From an uncultured Acidobacteriota bacterium (GTDB taxonomy: Bacteria; Acidobacteriota; UBA6911): 64,000 bases of DNA. Location: NCBI GenBank assembly GCA_963747985.1, contig CAVVHG010000014.1, positions 17,149 to 81,148 on the forward strand, written 5' to 3'. The translations under genes and the position numbers were made by a program. This document shows, piece by piece, positions 6,291-16,030 of the stretch. Positions within the stretch are counted from its first letter, which is position 1; the number at the start of each line of letters is the position of its first letter. The notes beneath the pieces were generated by a model that did not search any database, was not told the DNA's origin, and saw only the letters and a list, made by a program, of their open reading frames with translations.

Positions 6291-8801
6291 CTACTCGACC
6301 GGGCAGGGCCTTGCGTTCCAGATGTCGGCCGCGTATTCGGCAATCGTCCGGTCGCTTGAGAATCTTCCGGAGCCGGCTACATTCAGTATGGCCTTGCGAG
6401 CCCACGCGTCTGTGTCAGCATACAGTTCGCACAAGCGCCGGTCCGTCTCAAGATAGGACCTGAGATCGGCAAGGTGCATATAGTGATCCCCGTGCGCCAG
6501 GAGCGTGTCCAGCAGCGGTACAAACACCCCCGGCTCATGGCGGCTGAAGTGGTCGGAGCGGATCAGGTCCAGCGCGGCCCGGGTCTCAGGCTCGTTCTCA
6601 TAGTGCCAATACGGGCTGTACCAGCCGCGGCTTTCGACCACCTGCTGCGCAGTCAGGCCGAACAGGAAGAAGTTTTCCTCGCCTGCTTCCTCTGCCATCT
6701 CGATGGTCGCCCCGTCGCGCGTACCGATCGTCAGCGCCCCATTCATCATGAATTTCATGTTGCTCGTGCCGCTGGCCTCGTAGCCGGCGGTCGAAATCTG
6801 GTTGGAAACATCGCTGGCCGGGATCAACCTCTCTGCGAGCGAGGCACAGTAGTCCGGCAGGAACAGGACCTTGATGCGGCCTCGAGTCGCAGGATCGCCC
6901 TCAATCGTGCCGGCCAGGTTGTTGATGAATTTGATAACGAGTTTAGCCAGACGGTAGGCCGGCGCTGCCTTGCCCGCAAAGAAGAAGGTTCGCGGCTCCA
7001 GTTCGAGCCCCGGGTTGTCGCGCAGCCTCTGGTAAAGCACGACGATGCGCAGCGCGTTGAGCAGTTGCCGCTTGTATTCGTGGATGCGCTTTACCTGACA
7101 GTCGAAGATGGTGCCCGGGTCTACTGTCTGGCCGGAAGTTGACTTGAGCCAGGCGGCAAACTTCGACTTGGCTTCTTGCTTCGCCTTGCTAAAGGCATCG
7201 CAAAAGCCTTTATCTTCGGCCAGCGGCTTCAGCCTGGCCAGCTGATCGAGGTCGCCGATCCAGGCCTGGCCGATGGCTTCGCTGATCGTGCGGGAAAGGG
7301 AGGGGTTGGCCAGCCACAGCCAGCGCCGCGGCGTCACGCCGTTCGTCTTGTTGCCGAAGCGCTCCGGGAACATCTCGGCCAGGTCGCGAACTGTCACGGT
7401 ACGCAAGAGCCCGGAGTGAATCGCGGCCACGCCGTTCGTGCTATGCGAGCCGACGATGGCCAGGTTGGCCATACGGATCTTCTGGTGAGGAGCCTCCTCA
7501 ACCAGGCTTACACACTCGATCCGCCCCGCGTCACCCGGGAACCGCTCCCGAGCCTCGTCGAGCAGCCGACGGTTGATCTCGAGGATAATCTCCAGATGAC
7601 GCGGCAACATGGTCTTGAACCAGACCAACGGCCATTTCTCCAGCGCCTCGGGCAGCAGCGTGTGGTTCGTGTAGGCGAGGGTCCTTCGGGTGAGGTCCCA
7701 GGCGTGGTCCCAGCCGAGTTGCGCCTCGTCAAGCAGGATCCGCATCAGCTCGGGCACTGCCATCGCCGGGTGCGTGTCGTTCAGCTGGATGGCGGCCTTC
7801 TCCGGAAGCGCGTTCCAGTCCTGGTTGAGACGCCGGAACCTGCGGATGAGGTCGGCCAGCGAACAGGCGACGAGGAAGTACTCCTGCAGGAAGCGGAGCC
7901 CCTGCCCCATGCTCGTGGAATCATCGGGATAGAGCACCCGCGTGAGGGATTCGGCGCCGAGGGTTTCGGCAACGGCCCCTACAAAATCGCCGCTGCTGAA
8001 TTCCTGAAAGTCAAAGGAATCGGGAGCAGCCGCCGCCCAGAGCCGGAGCGTATTGATGGTCTTTCCTCCGTAGCCTACGACCGGACGGTCGAACGGGATG
8101 CCGATCAGGCTGACCGGATGGCCCGGGACTGCCCGCAGAGCCCCTCCTCGCAATTCAAACGAGCAGTGGAGTTTCACTTCGACCTTTTCGTGCAGCCGGG
8201 CGACCTCCCACGGGTCTGGCCGGCGGAGCCAGTTGTCCGGCTGCTCCAGCTGCCAGCCGTCACTTATGGTTTGCCTGAAAATGCCGTATTCGTAACGCAG
8301 TCCGTAGCCCATGGCAGGAAGCTGCATCGTTGCCATCGAATCGAGGAAGCATGCCGCCAGTCGTCCCAGGCCGCCGTTGCCCAAACCGGCGTCGGGTTCC
8401 TGCTCGACGAGGTCGAGCCAATCGACGTTCGTGCGCTTTACTGCATCATTGATGAGCGGATCGAGCAAGAGGTTGGCGATGTTGTTTGACAGCGAACGGC
8501 CGATGAGGAACTCCATCGAGAGGTAGTAAATTCGCTTCGGATTCTCGCGTGCGTAGGTGTTTTCGGTTTGCAACCATCGCTGCGAGAGGACATCTCTCAC
8601 GGAACGGGCCACCGCTTCAAAGCGTTCCCGTTGGCCGGCATCCTTCGGGTTGAGCACGTGGTCGAAAACGAGATGCCGCTCGTAGAGCGCGTTGTCCGTA
8701 CCGGCGAACTGAACCGGTCCGCACCCGTATTGGCGCACTATTCGTGAGACAAAGTCAGGATCGGCCGAGGCAAGAGGCCCAGTAATCTTTGCGTCGCTCA
8801 T
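6291..8801 (-). CDS. glgP: Glycogen/starch/alpha-glucan phosphorylase
   Basis: [49 protein letters not shown] (PLP Lys). Confidence 0.98.
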
Positions 8802-9099: not shown

Positions 9100-12000
9100 T
9101 TACTCGCCGGGCTGGTGAGGCAGGAACACCTGGATGGATATCTCTGATTCCTGCCCGTGGACGACGCGACTGAAACCTCCGGTGCGCCTGATGATATCTT
9201 CGAGTGTGGAGGTGCTCGAAGCAGCGCGCGCACCAAGTCCCAGGGCGCTCACGGACAGCCGCACATAGGCGCCGGGAACCGCGGCCTCGCCCCATCCTTC
9301 GTCGGCGCTTTCCACCTGGATCCTTCCTGTCTCCAGGGTAACGGCCCCTCCCGCCGGAAGCGCGTCCCGCGCGATGACGACGATCGTCGTCACAGCCTGC
9401 TCGAGTTCCTGCTTGACCATTGCGACCCGCTGCGGCTCAGGATCCAGACTGAGGTGAAGATCAATATCCTCGCCGGTCAGGCGGCGCAGGATGCTTTCCT
9501 GCTCCTTCAACTGCGAGTTCAGGTCGAACACTTCAGGTTTGCGGTCCTGCTTCTGGCTGAACATCCAGAGCTGCTGCGCGAGCCTCCGCGCCCGGCTGGC
9601 GTCCTTGGCGGCGTGGGCCGCGAGGTCCCGTTCTGTAGCCCCGCGGGCCTCGGTCTGCCGGAGACGGCTGTAGAGGCCTTCGACGGATGTGAGCAGGTCG
9701 TTCAAGGCCGGAGCCACTTCTGTTGCGAGCCGCCCGACCGCCTCCATGCGCCGACTTCGACGCAGCTCCTCTTCGAGCGCATATCGTTCGGTGATGTCGC
9801 TGAAAAACCACTCCAGGCGCGGCGGCTCACCCTTGTTCCCTGCCGCCGGACCGGCATACCCCTGCAACACGACGGTGCGGCCGTCCGCACGTTTCGCGCG
9901 GCACCGCACGTCGGGGGCCCCTCCAGGTTCGCCCAGGCGCCCCCCCTTGCCGCCATGTTCATCCACAACCGGTTTCAGTATGTCCGCTGCGGCGGTGAGC
10001 ATATTCCTGGCTGATTCATACCCGAGGATCCGGGCGAAAGCGTCGTTGCACTCGAGGAGTCTTCCTTCCGGAGTCGTCAGTGCGTAGGCCACCAGGCCGC
10101 CATCAACCAGATTCCGGTGACGCATGCTGAATTTGTCCAGCTCGGCCTGGACCGACATCTTCTCGGCGCCAACCTCTTCCGTCAGGCGCTGTTGCTCCGC
10201 CTGTGCGCGAGCGAGTTGTTTCTCGAGGGTTTCGTGCTCGGCCTTCAGGGAGCGTTTGGCGGATTCAGCCTCTGCCGTCAGGCGCTGAAGGTCCGCCCGT
10301 GCGCGGGCCAGCTGTTCCTCGAGGCTCTCACGCTCGGCGCGCTGTTGGGCGCTGATCTTCTGGATCCGTTCTTCTTCCTCCTGCTGGCACCGAGCGACCG
10401 TGCTGGTGAGCGCGTGCTCGAAATCCGACGACCATTTTCTGATCAGCTCCTGGTGCCGAACGATCGTCTCCCGTTGCAGTTGGCGCAGCCGATCGACCTC
10501 GCCCTTCTGGGCCACCAGCTCTTTCAGGGAGTCCTGATACACTTCGTTTCCAGCGCGAAGCTGTTCGGACAGTTCGTCCCGAGCCGCCCGGGCTGTCTGC
10601 AGTTCTACCGTGAGCGTGGCGCGGTCCTCTTCGGCACGCCGCAGCTTCTCTTCGATCTCCAGTAAAACTGGCTGGTGCTTTTCCTTTTCCGCCTGCAGGA
10701 GGACCGCCAGTTCCTCGCATCGGGCTCGCGCCGAGCCGAGAGCTTCCTCCAACCCGGCCCTCTCGCGCTCGACTCCGCGGATCTGCTCTTCCAGCTCCTT
10801 GCGGAGTGCCTCCAGCCGCGCGTGCTCGACCTCGACCCGCTCGTTCAATTCGGCGGCGCGCTTCTCAGAGGCGGCGAGAGAGGATTCAAGAGAGGCCCGC
10901 TGCTCTTCACCTGTTCGAAGCAGGTCTTGCCGGGTGGCTTCCCACGTGTCACGTTCCGTCTGGAATCGGGCCATGGTTTCAGCCAGTCTTGCCTCGGTCG
11001 CGCGAAGCATCTGGCTGCGCGTGGATTCCAGTTCCTCAAGCCCCTGACAGCGGCTCTCCAGTTGTTGTCTCGCGGTGAGCCAGTGAGATCGTTCAGCTTC
11101 AAAACCGCCCACGACCTGGTCGAGCTGCAGCTGGATCGTGCGCGACAATTCCCTGAGCGCCTCGCGTTCGCCTTCGGCGGACCGAAGCCGGCTTTCGAGT
11201 TCGTTCCGCTCCTCCTGCCATCGGGCTTCGGCGGCTTGATGGTTCGCGGACAGCTCATCCTGCCGGGACTGTGCACTTCGGACTGTTTCTTCGAGGGCGG
11301 CGCTTTGAGCTCCGGCCGCATTGATCCGCTGCTGGAGGTCCGCTCGCGCAGCTTCCCAGGCGGTTCGTTCACCCTGCAGGGCGGCGGTTTCTTCGGCCAG
11401 TGTGGCCTCCGCCGCGCGAAGTTCCTCTGCAAGCCTGCCGGCCTGTTCTTCGGCGAGCCGCCGCTGCTCTTCGGCCGCCTGACGCTGCCGATCCAACTCC
11501 TGGCGCCCGGCTTCCCACGTGTCGCGTTCGCTCTGAAGCGCCGCGGTCCCTTCGGCGAGTTTAGCCTCCATCGCGTGAAGTTCCCCGGCAAGCCTGCTGA
11601 CTTGTTCTTCGGCAAGCCGCCGCTGCTCTTCGGCCGCCTGACGCTGCCGATCCAGATCCTGACGCCCGGCTTCCCACGTGTCGCGTTCGCTCTGAAGCGC
11701 TGCGGTCCCTTCGGCGAGTTTAGCCTCCATCGCGTGAAGTTCCCCGGCAAGCCGGTTGGCCTGTTCTTCGGCGAGCCGCCGCTGCTCTTCGGCCGCCTGA
11801 CGCTGCCGATCCAGATCCTGGCGCCCGGCTTCCCACGTGTCGCGTTCGCTCTGAAGCGCTGCGGTCCCTTCGGCGAGTTTAGCCTCCATCGCGCGAAGTT
11901 CCCCGGCAAGCCTGCCGGCCTGTTCTTCGGCGAGCCGCCGCTGCTCTTCGGCCGCCTGTCGCTGCCGATCCAATCCTGGCGCCCGGCTTCCCACGTGTCG

Positions 12001-14473
12001 CGTTCGCTCTGAAGCGCCGCGGTCCCTTCGGCGAGTTTAGCCTCCATCGCGCGAAGTTCCTCTGCAAGCCTGCCGGCCTGTTCTTCGGCGAGCCGCCGCT
12101 GCTCTTCGGCCGCCTGACGCTGCCGATCCAATCCTGGCGCCCGGCTTCCCACGTGTCGCGTTCGCTCTGAAGCGCTGCGGTCCCTTCGGCGAGTTTAGCC
12201 TCCATCGCGCGAAGTTCCCCGGCAAGCCTGCTGACTTGTTCTTCGGCGAGCCGCCGCTGCTCTTCGGCCGCCTGACGCTGCCGATCCAGATCCTGACGTT
12301 CGGCCTCGATCCGGGAGCGCTCCTCCTCTGCTTCCGCCAGCGCCCCGTTAAGGCGCAGATGCATCTCTTGCTTCTCCGCGTCGAGCGCGTTCCGCTGGGC
12401 GGCCAGCTCCGACTGCTGACGGTCAGACTCCTGGCGAACCGCCTCCCATCGCACATTCTCAGCGTTGAAGCTTTCCCTGAGCGCCCCGTAACGCTCCTCT
12501 GCCGACCGGAGAAGGCCGTTCATGAACGCCACCCGGGCTTCTGTGTTGCTGCGACTCTCCTCGAGCTCCTGACGCACCTTCTGCCACTGCGCCCGCTCGT
12601 CTTCCAGAAGCGACGTGAGTTCGGCCACGCGTTCCCGCGCCGCTGTCAGTTCGTCGCCGACGGCCCTGTGCTGTTCCTCGGCGGCTGCCAGGCTCCGCGC
12701 AAGCTCGTCGCGCGCTGCCTCCGCCTGGGTCTTCTCGGCACGCAACGCAAGCACAAATTCCTCGTGCTTTCCCTCGAGTTCGTGGAGTATCTCCTCCAGG
12801 GTATTCTTCTCGTCACGGGCAGCCTGAGCCTTTTGCTCGACCTCGGCCATGCGGTTCTGCAGCTGGCCTATCTCCGCCTGGTGGCTGTCTGCCAGCTCCG
12901 TGCATCTCGATTTGGCGGCCAGCAGCGCCTCTTCGAGCATGGTCCGGTGTTCGTCGGCGGACTGGAGCTGCTGCTCAAGGTCCTTCAGTGTCGACTCCAA
13001 GCCAGCCCGTTCGGAGGCATGGCGGGCGGCGGCCTCGTCAAGCCGTTCTTCTGCGACCTTGAGAGCATCCTCCGCCGCTTTCGCTTTTTCGGCGGCTTCG
13101 CCCTCCTTCCGCCGGGACTCCTCCAGCGATGATTCCCATCGACCCCGCTCGCCCTCCTGCAGCGCGGCGGCTTCGGCCAGCTTTACCTCCGCCGTTGCAA
13201 GCGCTTCCTCCGCAGCCCTCTTCTGCTCCGCCAGTTCCTGCTTCGCAGCCTCGATCTCCTTCAGATCCTGGCTGAGCCGATCGCAACGCTCCTGCAGCGC
13301 CAGCACCTCCTCGCCCGAAGCGACGTGCGTGACGTCCTGGATTACGGCCAGGGCAACGGTCGTGCCATTCGGGTCGCGCCTCAGGGGCACGGCCCGCATC
13401 TCCAGTTCGCGCGCAAGCCCGTCCAAGCCGGCCCACTTCACGCGGACGCTATCCCTTTCGCCGCCGCAGATCCTGGATACATACGCACGCAACTGCTCAT
13501 CCTGGGGAGGGCCGAGGAGCGTGAACAGATTCTTCCCCACTATGTCATCTACGTGCTTGGCCCCCACGAGAGACAGACCAGCCCAGTTCATGGCCAGGAA
13601 GGTCCCGTCGGAGGCGAGGAGGGCGACACAGGCGGGCACGAACTCGATAATCATACGCAGGCGTTCTTCGCTGGCTCGGAGCGCCATCTTCTCGCGCACC
13701 ATGTCCCGCCGCGCAATCAGGCCATCGAGGGACAGGAGAAATCTCCCGTAGTAATCGCCACTCTTGATGATGCAGTCCGAGGCACCCAGTCGCAGCGCCT
13801 GGATCGCCATCTCCTCCTGGCCGGCTGCAAGAAGGAGTACGACGGGATAGTCGGGCCAACGGGAGATCACGTCCTTCAGGACCTTCAGGACGTGCACGCC
13901 CAGGGCCTGATCCTCGAGGACCACCAGGTCGCAGGCGAGCGAGGTCGGATGAGTCCCTGGCGGGCGATGGACGGTCCCATCCTCGTTGACAAACGCCGCC
14001 TCCAGCTCGACAAAAGGCACCGAGCCCAGATGACGGCGGGCGTTCTCCATGTCGCCGGCGTAGAGCACCCTGATCGTTCTGGCGCGGCGCTGGGCGCGAC
14101 CGCGATAACGCTCGAGGGTCTGCTGGAGAAGCGCAGGCACGCGGCTCACGTAGTTCGGGCGTTTCACTACGTAGTCATCAGCTCCTCCAGCGATGAATTT
14201 TGCCGGAGGATCCTCGTCGTTAGGGCCGATGACCACCACGACAGCCAGGGGCAGATTCTGCTGCCGGATGCGGTTGATCAGGGCCTGGCATTCCCCGTTC
14301 GGAAGCTGGGCATCGATCAGGACAAGGTCGTAGCTTGCCGAGGGATCGAGGCGCGAGACGGCATCGCGGGCATCGGGGGAAATTTCAATCTGGATGTTGG
14401 ATGCAACCTTCTTGACCTCGTGCTCGAGAAAGTCGCCGTCTCTCAGGTCTCCGGTAACGAACAGGACTTTCAT
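9100..14473 (-). CDS. Giant REC-REC-PAS-coiled-coil-PAS-degenerate histidine kinase, frameshifted twice (about 1,791 aa if repaired)
   Basis: ORFs 11879-14473, 10845-12152 and 9100-11994 join into one protein; 1-bp deletions near 12130 and 11972; HisKA H-box reads VAPALNDLL and the ATP-lid boxes are degenerate. Confidence 0.85.
11413..12298. repeat. Intragenic tandem repeat, 159-bp (53-aa) unit, about 5.6 copies
   Basis: Anchor CCGCTGCTCT at 11461, 11620, 11779, 11938, 12096, 12254 (spacing 159,159,159,158,158). Confidence 0.97.
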
Positions 14474-14611
14474 AGGCTTCCTGCCCTGGACGCCCGCAGG
14501 ATACGGGCATCGCCCCAGGGGGGCGACTCCGGCGGAAGTTCAAACCGGGAGCCCGGTCTCGTGGGGCCTCAAGACCCCTGAAGGGCGCCCGGCCTGAGGT
14601 TCACCGGAGAA

Positions 14612-15151
14612 TCACCAGCTGTTGACTCCAAAAATCTGGCACAGATCATGCTCGGTCTCAGTGACCACTGCCGTTACCGTCACAATGCCCGGCGCGTCAC
14701 CTTGATCTGCGGCGCCTGAAACAGGTGCTGTGGGCGGGCCCGACGGCATTTCAGGCTCCTGTCGGGGTACCGCTTCTTTAGCGGCGGAATCCGCCTTGTC
14801 CTCGGAGAACAGGGCGACTTCCTCGTCGAAGGCTACGGCGGACCTGTACCGGACCAGACCCGGCTGCAGGCACGACACGCGAGACCGCAAAACGCGGCCG
14901 TCGATCAGGAGAGTCGTGTCTGTCGTGACCAGCCGGAGGCATACCCTGGTTCCCGGAGGCAAGGGCGTTTCGCTCTCAAGCTGAGCCCCGCCCCGTGAAA
15001 CATCAATGAGGCGTACTTCGGGTCCGGCAAGGAGTTTAACACTTTTCAGGAAAGGAAGTTCAGAGGCAGGCCTGCGAGGGGATGCCCGACGCTCCCTGAC
15101 CACATTTGTCTCAGTCGCGTTTTGCTCGATCCATGCATTACTCTTCATCAT
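14612..15151 (-). CDS. PilZ-domain protein
   Basis: ERRASPRR (RxxxR) and IDVSRGGA (D/NxSxxG) c-di-GMP-binding motifs, followed by a low-complexity tail. Confidence 0.85.
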   Translation of the reverse strand: MMKSNAWIEQNATETNVVRERRASPRRPASELPFLKSVKLLAGPEVRLIDVSRGGAQLESETPLPPGTRVCLRLVTTDTTLLIDGRVLRSRVSCLQPGLVRYRSAVAFDEEVALFSEDKADSAAKEAVPRQEPEMPSGPPTAPVSGAADQGDAPGIVTVTAVVTETEHDLCQIFGVNSW

Positions 15152-15294
15152 AAGCCACACCCTTCGGGCCGCCGGCCTTCGTCAGACTTCACATCGGCAG
15201 ATATCCTGGAAAAGATGAGCGTTGCAGGTTACCCTCAGGGGTAGAATAGCCGGGGATCAGGTTGCACATCTCTGCCGCATCAAGGAGACCCGTC

Positions 15295-15873
15295 ATGGCC
15301 AAGAAGATACTGATGCTCGTCGGCGATTTCGTCGAGGATTACGAAGTCATGGTTCCCTTCCAGGCGCTCAAGATGGTCGGGCACGAGGTGCACGCCATCT
15401 GCCCTGGGAAAAGGAGCGGCGAGACGGTCAAGACCGCCATACACGACTTCGAGGGAGACCAGACCTACAGTGAGAAGCCCGGCCATCGCTTCGCGTTGAA
15501 TGCCGACTTCGAGGGCGTCTGCCTCGAGGACTACGATGCCCTCGTCATCCCGGGCGGGAGGGCACCCGAATACATCAGGCTGAATCCGGTAGTTCTCGAG
15601 ATTGTGCGCCATTTTGCCTGGCAGGGGATGCCGATCGCGGCCATCTGCCACGGAGCACAGTTGCTGGCGGCTGCCGGCGTGCTGGACGGCAAGAGTTGCT
15701 CCGCCTACCCTGCGTGCCGGCCTGATGTCGAACGTGCAGGCGGAAAGTACATGGACATCGCGCTCGACTCCGCTCACGTCGACGGTAACCTTGTCACGGC
15801 ACCCGCGTGGCCCGCACACCCGAACTGGCTGAGGATGTTCCTCGATGTTCTGGGGACGAGGATCAGTCCCTGA
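15295..15873 (+). CDS. pfpI: DJ-1/PfpI family protein (protease/glyoxalase/deglycase)
   Basis: [26 protein letters not shown] nucleophile elbow; AAGGAG RBS. Confidence 0.92.
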
Positions 15874-15958
15874 GCGGAGAACGTTTTCCGGACGCCTCGA
15901 GCACTGCGCACACCACCATCCTCTGTCCGCAGGGAGATACGAGGCAAGAGAAGATGTC

Positions 15959-15987
15959 ATGGGCGCCGTGCAATGCACGACGCCCAT
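15959..15987. terminator. GC-rich palindrome between convergent genes (terminator or REP)
   Basis: ATGGGCGCCGTGCA-A-TGCACGACGCCCAT, one mismatch. Confidence 0.5.
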
Positions 15988-16030
15988 CGGCAATCAGGTA
16001 ATTCGGGACCGCCGACCCACGGGGCCGGGG

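Follow-up and report, generated by a model that had tools for sequence, protein, structure and literature searches.

The locus analysed here raises the question of what is encoded by two overlapping open reading frames (ORFs) that follow a PilZ gene in an uncultured Acidobacteriota bacterium, and of what the resulting protein could do for the cell. The window, by which we mean the whole 64,000-nucleotide (nt) stretch of DNA that was analysed (contig CAVVHG010000014.1, positions 17,149 to 81,148), carries both ORFs on its minus strand, at 11879..14473 (864 amino acids, aa) and 9100..11994 (964 aa), and they are two frames of a single gene: when two missing bases are restored, one giant ORF of 1,791 aa results. 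Such a repaired gene of about 1,791 aa, with its coordinates and layout, had been proposed in an earlier note made from the letters of the window, and the ORFs and the two restored bases bear it out. We found an orthologue of the PilZ gene immediately ahead of the giant gene in four genomic contexts that have nothing else in common, and sequence comparison identifies the pair as a conserved PilZ/giant-protein module in Acidobacteriota. The module is laid out in the window as follows.

9100..14473, minus strand: giant gene, encoding REC1, REC2, PAS1, a coiled coil, PAS2, a DHp-like hairpin and a CA-like domain; 1,791 aa once two 1-nt deletions are restored
14612..15151, minus strand: stand-alone PilZ gene, 179 aa, stop codon counted in the coordinates; upstream of the giant gene
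14474..14611, minus strand: intercistronic leader of 138 nt, from PilZ to the giant gene
14108..14473, minus strand: REC1, aa 1-122; Pfam Response_reg, 52.7 bits
13700..14074, minus strand: REC2, aa 134-258; second Response_reg stretch, with PDB and NCBIfam receiver matches at aa 170-249
13319..13678, minus strand: PAS1, aa 266-385; PAS_4, PAS_9 and PAS matches, TIGR00229 over aa 266-385
10141..13288, minus strand: coiled-coil rod, aa 396-1445, 1,050 aa, from composition and periodicity
11366..12295, minus strand: tandem repeat array of a 159-bp (53-aa) unit, 5.9 copies; Tandem Repeats Finder score 1608, 94% matches
12130..12131, minus strand: first 1-nt deletion, at the start of repeat unit 2; GATCTGG to GAT-TGG
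11972..11973, minus strand: second 1-nt deletion, at the start of repeat unit 3; identical to the first
9796..10125, minus strand: PAS2, aa 1451-1560; PAS_8 and PAS_9 matches and AlphaFold2 (AF2) fold
9544..9792, minus strand: DHp-like helical hairpin, aa 1562-1644; AF2 helices and alignment to CckA (5idj)
9103..9534, minus strand: CA-like alpha/beta domain, aa 1648-1791; AF2 and Foldseek, no Pfam HATPase_c match

The PilZ/giant-protein module and its family

The upstream protein matched the Pfam PilZ family (PF07238) with 29.6 bits against a cut-off of 22.5, and its orthologue in L094, a Vicinamibacterales metagenome-assembled genome (MAG), scored 33.5 bits. Both of the cyclic diguanylate-binding motifs that had been read as intact are present, RxxxR as RRASPR (R22..R26) and DxSxxG as DVSRGG (D50-V-S-R-G-G55), and the protein also has a low-complexity variable linker and then a conserved C-terminal tail, VTVTAVV....DL.QIFG.N.W. 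Homologues at 63-98% identity are 178-182 aa long, and motifs and tail were invariant or nearly so in nine orthologues, some of them at 39-43% identity. Particularly, R22, R26 and S52-R-G-G-A56 do not vary even in orthologues of just 39% identity, and position 50 is either Asp or Asn. A hidden Markov model specific to this PilZ family found matches upstream of the giant gene in loci L083-L091 and L094 (E 1e-37 to 1e-96), which fall into four contexts.

Context 1, window clade and L084-L090: pair flanked by DJ-1/PfpI
Context 2, L083: flanking genes different from those of the other contexts
Context 3, L091, an Acidobacteriota MAG: pair flanked by MacB/FtsX
Context 4, L094, the Vicinamibacterales MAG: pair flanked by prolyl oligopeptidase

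When the four contexts were compared nothing else around the pair was conserved, and in L094 the giant gene starts just 9 nt after the stop codon of PilZ. The reading put forward in the earlier note depended on this adjacency being kept in related genomes, and it is kept in all four contexts.

Between the two genes the window has a GC-rich leader of 138 nt with predicted stem-loops and with AGGAAG 5 nt ahead of the ATG. Mean column identity of the leader was 94% across five relatives, including L084, whose PilZ protein is just 76% identical, and RNAalifold predicted a structure of -71 kcal/mol with 48 pairs, four of them with compensatory changes. An Rfam search of the leader returned only a sub-threshold DicF match, and promoter and terminator scans performed no better than on shuffled sequence. 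Since the L094 spacer is just 9 nt, the leader is specific to the clade.

To define the family of the giant protein, its N-terminal 417 residues were used in an exhaustive search, which returned 305 cluster representatives at E < 1e-30, many of them 1,100-1,780 aa long and matching across residues 1-410; a word-indexed search with the N-terminus had given a best match of 33% identity and missed the close relatives that the exhaustive search recovered. Homologues of the giant protein were found at E 1e-198 to 1e-232, so the match is not due to chance. We fetched 38 representatives, 27 of which had a long rod and a kinase-like tail, and aligned 26 of these, leaving out P0189 for its truncated N-terminus; two more (P0174 and P0232) bear the rod, yet are cut or frameshifted ahead of the tail. 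Together with the window and L085, this gave 28 aligned members, with N-terminal identities of 28-85%. A separate alignment of 16 N-terminal sequences was too diverse for pattern scans, and sub-alignments served instead. Every family case with a known taxon belongs to Acidobacteriota. Two Anaerolineales loci (L092 and L093) turned out to hold ordinary REC-REC-PAS proteins without a PilZ partner and were treated as outgroup. When genome contigs were scanned with the C-terminal head, no relative appeared among the GTDB species representatives; the window's own clade is known from metagenome contigs only, and the metagenome scan gave two loci that both start inside the rod and hence have no upstream context.

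Judging from these alignments, members of the family are 1,400-1,800 aa long and consist of a REC-REC-PAS head, a rod of ~600-1,050 residues and a PAS-DHp-CA head. No NCBIfam model reached its cut-off on the giant protein, literature searches for the REC-REC-PAS-rod-PAS-pseudokinase architecture returned nothing specific, and the source annotations of the family are generic ("PAS domain protein" or "histidine kinase"); the remark in the earlier note that this is not a characterised system agrees with the lack of a curated family or a paper on the architecture in these searches. Pfam recognized in the giant protein two stretches of Response_reg, a PAS domain over residues 266-385 and a second PAS domain near the C-terminus. 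The peptide strings that had been quoted for the restored protein are all present in it, namely DLVLID (D54), VVK (K104), LVVLE (E187), EAVGRLATEVAPALNDLL (P1589, at the His position), TIVVIARDAL (I1701, at the N-box Asn position) and SALGLG (A1744, at the G1 Asp position).

By homology, the C-terminal head descends from a CckA-type histidine kinase. Its best sequence match in the PDB was Caulobacter CckA (5idj, E 1.9e-15), the best NCBIfam match was also CckA (101 bits vs a cut-off of 1000), and the nearest homologues outside the family were PAS-HisKA-HATPase-REC hybrids, several of them annotated CckA, at 31-34% identity and E values to 1e-44. An AF2 model of the last 344 residues, built from an alignment of 80 sequences, reached a predicted local distance difference test (pLDDT) score of 87.5 and contained a PAS fold, a continuous 46-residue helix leading into a hairpin (helices 115-160 and 166-197) and then an alpha/beta domain. 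The PAS2 fold in this model (residues 4-113) had pLDDT values mostly of 79-96, with a dip to 61-65 in a loop in the 50s-60s. Foldseek matched the model with probability 1.00 to dimeric LOV/PAS histidine kinases, CckA (5idj, 5idm), ZraS and RetS.

The residues required of a kinase are gone from this fold. Pro1589 stands at the phospho-His position (MQAIGQLAGGVAHDFNNLLT aligned to MEAVGRLATEVAPALNDLLT of CckA 5idj), Ile1701 replaces the N-box Asn, Ala1744 replaces the G1 Asp, and a 20-residue gap is found where real kinases have FEPFFTTK..GTGLGL, that is, the F and G2 boxes and the ATP lid. The head also lacks the C-terminal receiver borne by its CckA-annotated relatives, and a Pfam scan of the giant protein found neither HisKA nor HATPase_c at E <= 0.1. 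All 28 aligned members lack the His and share the identical 20-residue lid deletion, while the N-box Asn and G1 Asp are kept just sporadically among them. Moreover, between the window and L085, the closest full-length orthologue, the ratio of nonsynonymous to synonymous substitution rates (dN/dS) was 0.27 for the DHp-like hairpin and 0.14 for the CA-like domain, and the DHp surface residues MEAVGRLA and LAxQLxxFSxKQ are strongly conserved. Because 28 members share the loss of His and the lid deletion, and dN/dS is low, the alignments identify the head as an old, selected pseudokinase and not a product of decay. The earlier note had described a dead kinase module without His, N-box Asn, G1 Asp or F/G2 boxes, and had seen decay as the explanation to prefer if homologues retained those boxes; the description stood, and close and distant homologues alike are without the His and the lid.

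The two receivers depart from the canonical pattern as well. Response_reg (PF00072) was recognized in two stretches with 52.7 bits, passing the threshold of 30.2. By alignment to the AdeR and PhoP receivers, REC1 keeps D54 and K104, its acidic pair reads T-G-D vs E-D-D in AdeR, and the beta4 Thr/Ser is a Val; in the Vicinamibacterales-type subfamily a Ser takes the place of its Asp, and in P0170 a Glu does. In REC2 of the window clade, Glu187 replaces the phospho-Asp, Ala replaces the Thr/Ser, and K237 is kept. Among the 16 aligned members, the phospho-Asp position of REC2 is Asp in 11, the Thr position commonly holds Thr or Ser, and K237 is nearly invariant. Neither receiver has the full catalytic set of acidic pair, phospho-Asp, Thr/Ser and Lys. 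The label "canonical" that REC1 had been given in the earlier note therefore does not hold, as one acidic-pocket residue and the Thr/Ser are missing and the Asp is not family-wide, while the atypical character ascribed to REC2 from its LVVLE string is confirmed by Glu187. Both receivers look degenerate, and at least some members of the family probably show pseudo-receiver behaviour, which has been reviewed (PMC12632262). In PAS1, residues R271, R273, P280, G290, A294, N296, G304 and R366 are invariant.

The rod (residues 396-1445) contains a single Pro, is 70% E/A/R/L/Q and has, in most of its segments, a hydrophobic period of 3.5-3.6 residues that is not seen in the globular parts; with a continuous helix it would measure ~150 nm. 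It is built of degenerate 46/53-aa repeats, each with an ER..WE..R..LE motif. Autocorrelation peaked at 53, 106 and 46 aa in the window protein and elsewhere in the family at 46 aa in most relatives and 39 in two, and the periods 39, 46 and 53 are all of the form 7n+4, a hint that stutters recur at regular intervals in the predicted coiled coil. Rod length ranged from 575 to 1,041 aa among the family members measured, and dN/dS of the rod vs L085 was 0.19-0.24.

Some further observations concern the termini and the surroundings of the module. The subfamily of L091 (3538..7830) and P0171 is without PAS2, and its rod runs straight into a degenerate DHp-like hairpin; given this subfamily, PAS2 appears dispensable for the core design of the family. 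The PilZ partner always ends in N-x-W (14615..14640 in the window) and the Vicinamibacterales-type giants P0228, P0236, P0250, P0253 and P0276 end in W(N/G/D/S)W(L/T); these terminal Trp motifs may be related or may resemble each other by coincidence. Beyond PilZ, a minus-strand ORF of 237 aa (15280..15993) without any family match is the shadow of a plus-strand DJ-1/PfpI gene (15262..15873; Pfam E 1e-43), which is oriented opposite to PilZ and present in all close relatives. At the other end, a glycogen phosphorylase gene (6291..8801, minus strand) sits between the giant gene and a PGM-transaldolase-PGI block. This gene is absent at the corresponding place in L001 (1660..2103), L002 (2141..2967) has a FitA-like/PIN toxin-antitoxin pair in its stead, and the junction is a variable spot for insertions. 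The PilZ/giant module was present in none of the 80 loci fetched through glycogen phosphorylase synteny.

The tandem repeat and the interruption of this copy

The giant gene of the window is interrupted by exactly two 1-nt deletions, GATCTGGATC having become GAT-TGGATC between 12131/12130 and again between 11973/11972. Both lie at one and the same point of the 159-bp repeat, in unit 2 and in unit 3: these two units open with GATTGGATC, units 1, 4 and 5 open with GATCTGGATC, and the unit-to-unit spacing is 158, 158, 159, 159 and 159 nt. Units 1-5 differ pairwise at just 3-7 of 146 nt. The first deletion shifts the frame past residue Asp780, and the gene as it stands encodes an N-terminal product of 864 aa, the last 84 residues of which are out of frame. 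The earlier note was right about architecture and repair and underplayed this truncation. The part of the giant gene beyond the breaks may go unexpressed in this window.

Uninterrupted orthologues are found in L085 (7768..12825; 1,685 aa), L091 (1,430 aa) and L094 (1,730 aa), and the giant gene of L086 is open for 1,369 aa, as far as the contig end. For the giant gene of the window, dN/dS vs L085 was 0.19; downstream of the breaks it was 0.14-0.27, as low as upstream, and replacements are not in excess there. Twelve neighbouring genes in the window have ORFs of full length: nine agree with their orthologues to within 4 aa, and three differ by 10-30 aa, at the start. Short-read contigs of relatives stop exactly at the start of the array (L087 and L089, residue 726), end inside it (L088 and L084) or start beyond it (L001 and L002), so the array is hard to assemble. 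Its copy number is labile: there are six units in the window, four (more diverged) in L085 and also one or two among close relatives, and between P0169 and P0322, which otherwise share 99.7% identity, exactly one 53-aa unit makes the difference. Another reading of the lesion is a contraction of TTT to TT following a synonymous change of CTG to TTG, and unit 6 has TTG. As the orthologues are uninterrupted and dN/dS is low past the breaks, these are either an assembly or base-calling artefact in a hard-to-assemble array or a very recent inactivation.

That the locus is freshly dead in this genome, with both deletions real, one of them having spread to the adjoining unit through gene conversion or unequal crossing-over, and the pseudokinase head therefore lost, is a serious possibility that we consider somewhat less likely than not. 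Both deletions stand in the sequence as given, and that two adjoining units, which differ from each other at 4 of 146 nt, carry an identical lesion fits conversion within the array; units 1, 4 and 5 are correct in an identical local context, which argues against a purely systematic base-calling error, and the other genes of the synteny block are all free of frameshifts, so that errors must be rare in general. On the other hand, the frame is open in all relatives with coverage, the low dN/dS past the breaks means that any inactivation must be very recent, the exact breakage of the relatives' short-read assemblies at the array marks it as error-prone, and a contraction of TTT to TT is a typical homopolymer error. 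Programmed frameshifting was rejected, as there is no slippery heptamer at GGATTGG and units 1, 4 and 5 and the orthologues are in frame. Two separate genes are also unlikely, since no relative is split and the downstream ORF has no evident ribosome-binding site.

Candidate roles of the module

The best explanation overall, which we favour tentatively and with belief and doubt nearly in balance, is that the giant protein is a non-catalytic dimeric scaffold or tether that docks partners, with PilZ as its adaptor for cyclic diguanylate (c-di-GMP). Two copies would pair in parallel along the DHp-like hairpin and the long helix leading into it, as in PAS-histidine kinases; we infer this because the 46-residue helix enters the hairpin and the top Foldseek matches are dimeric LOV/PAS kinases. 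The dimer would be a dumbbell of ~100-150 nm devoid of enzymatic output, and because it has no His and no ATP lid its output would have to be binding. Much as DivL or RetS do, the pseudokinase head could bind a genuine kinase or a response regulator, and the REC-REC-PAS head could take a phosphorylation-like or ligand input, or localise the protein as in FrzS. The c-di-GMP-loaded PilZ protein would dock on one of the heads, perhaps through its conserved tail, as HapZ does on the SagS receiver, and its docking would switch partner binding or localisation. The rod would serve as a spacer or tether of variable length, since a length that varies freely argues against both an exact ruler and a strict lattice. 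The module could even be a hitherto unrecognised cell-organising device of Acidobacteriota, a dimeric tether of 100-150 nm whose two heads bridge different sites in the cell, with PilZ and c-di-GMP as the switch and with its length tuned from strain to strain as 46/53-aa repeat units are gained or lost, which we consider conceivable and on balance unlikely.

Several points weigh against a scaffold with a PilZ adaptor. The binding of c-di-GMP, a contact between PilZ and the rod, the orientation of the dimer and the existence of any partner are all things that we infer. Neither receiver keeps its Asp family-wide, so a phosphorylation input is doubtful, and the gene is broken in this window, where the module may be non-functional. 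There is no diguanylate cyclase, kinase, motility or secretion gene nearby in the window that could point to a pathway. The AF2 model of the PilZ protein, with a pLDDT of 42, was too poor for a fold search, and the PilZ profile matched no solved structure in the PDB by sequence.

Other accounts of the giant protein have to be set against the same evidence. It could be mainly a self-assembling cytoskeletal filament of the intermediate-filament, crescentin, Scy or FilP type, with the heads regulating assembly. Its 1,050 coiled-coil residues with regularly spaced, stutter-like 7n+4 repeats would suit a filament, and in Pfam the intermediate-filament rod gave a weak hit (E 0.007, 16.4 bits), but that match lies far under the 40-bit cut-off and is such as any long coiled coil gives; moreover, a rod length that is free between close strains is unusual for lattice formers, and large globular heads sit at both ends, and we regard the filament as quite improbable. 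Alternatively, a DivL/RetS-type pseudokinase activity could be the essential one, titrating or allosterically controlling a CckA-like kinase or sensing a phosphorylated response regulator, with the rod an incidental spacer and PilZ a separate effector that is merely co-transcribed. The CckA-type kinases as closest relatives, RetS among the structural matches, the conserved DHp surface residues and the precedent of DivL (PMC4211667) all speak for this. Against it, no member is without the coiled coil, which evolves under purifying selection, as the dN/dS given above shows, and is therefore not incidental, and the adjacency of PilZ outlasts complete turnover of the flanking genes, a tight coupling that points to a functional pair; we think this alternative unlikely. 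The idea that the C-terminal module is still an active kinase, through another residue or by being phosphorylated in trans, can draw on the kept fold and on the few members that hold the N-box Asn or the G1 Asp, and is hardly credible when no member has the His, all are without the F/G2 lid that closes over ATP, and Pfam recognizes neither HisKA nor HATPase_c.

If the scaffold with its PilZ adaptor is the right reading, and PilZ docks on the rod in a c-di-GMP-dependent way, the module would offer a new route from a second messenger to spatial organisation. Acidobacteriota are abundant in soil and their cell biology is poorly studied, and here a widespread two-gene module that appears to be selectively maintained in the phylum has been hidden under generic labels. 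It would join three themes so far studied apart, namely pseudo-histidine kinases, pseudo-receiver coiled-coil scaffolds and PilZ adaptors, and, with the lid deleted family-wide, it would be a clear case of a kinase fold irreversibly turned into a binding module. The array carries a further lesson, as near-identical tandem repeats within a gene break short-read assemblies and carry frameshift calls, and genes of this kind are thereby systematically fragmented in metagenomic catalogues.

Comparison with known systems

The closest relative of the PAS2-DHp-CA head in both sequence and structure is Caulobacter CckA (5idj/5idm), in which the arrangement of the helix from PAS to DHp is the same as in the giant protein. 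CckA is controlled by c-di-GMP, which it binds (PMC12564702). In contrast, the head described here is without the His, the N-box Asn, the G1 Asp, the ATP lid and the C-terminal receiver, and c-di-GMP would act on it through a separate PilZ protein and not through the CA domain; the giant protein also adds a rod of 1,050 aa and two N-terminal receivers. DivL keeps its CA domain, with a Tyr replacing the His; RetS, which acts on GacS, has kept its domains. In both, a kinase fold has been turned to protein-protein signalling without autophosphorylation, to which we liken the present head, and DivL has been described as a repurposed kinase (PMC4211667). A lid deletion is not known from either of them, nor are N-terminal receivers, a PilZ partner or a giant coiled coil.

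The layout of the other half of the protein is shared with FrzS and AglZ of Myxococcus xanthus, non-enzymatic scaffolds in which a receiver-like N-terminus is followed by a long dimerising coiled coil. FrzS receiver structures are present in the PDB, and among the 44 PDB receiver matches to REC1 and REC2 (E <= 0.01) no chain was named FrzS. The comparison with FrzS and AglZ drawn in the earlier note is thus one of analogy and not of membership, no specific receiver similarity having been found; both proteins are without PAS domains, a kinase-like head or a linked PilZ gene, and belong to a different phylum. FrzS has been described as a pseudo-receiver with a coiled coil that acts as a polar beacon through its pseudo-receiver surface, alongside the concept of the pseudo-histidine kinase (PMC12632262).

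With respect to length and build, the rod resembles crescentin, Scy and FilP, which are also very long, repeat-built coiled coils with periodic discontinuities; these have no signalling heads. For the pairing with PilZ, we liken the module to HapZ and SagS of P. aeruginosa on the grounds of its genetic linkage in four contexts. HapZ binds the receiver domain of SagS, and the genes of the two are not known to be an adjacent pair. HapZ is a single-domain PilZ protein and SagS, with which it works, belongs to the histidine-kinase family (PMC12564702). Unlike the dead head described here, SagS is an active hybrid kinase, and unlike HapZ, the PilZ protein of the module has an extra conserved C-terminal tail and no sequence match to a solved PilZ structure. 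Seen against these systems, the predicted architecture is a new combination of known kinds: a pseudo-histidine kinase, a pseudo-receiver coiled-coil scaffold and a PilZ adaptor.

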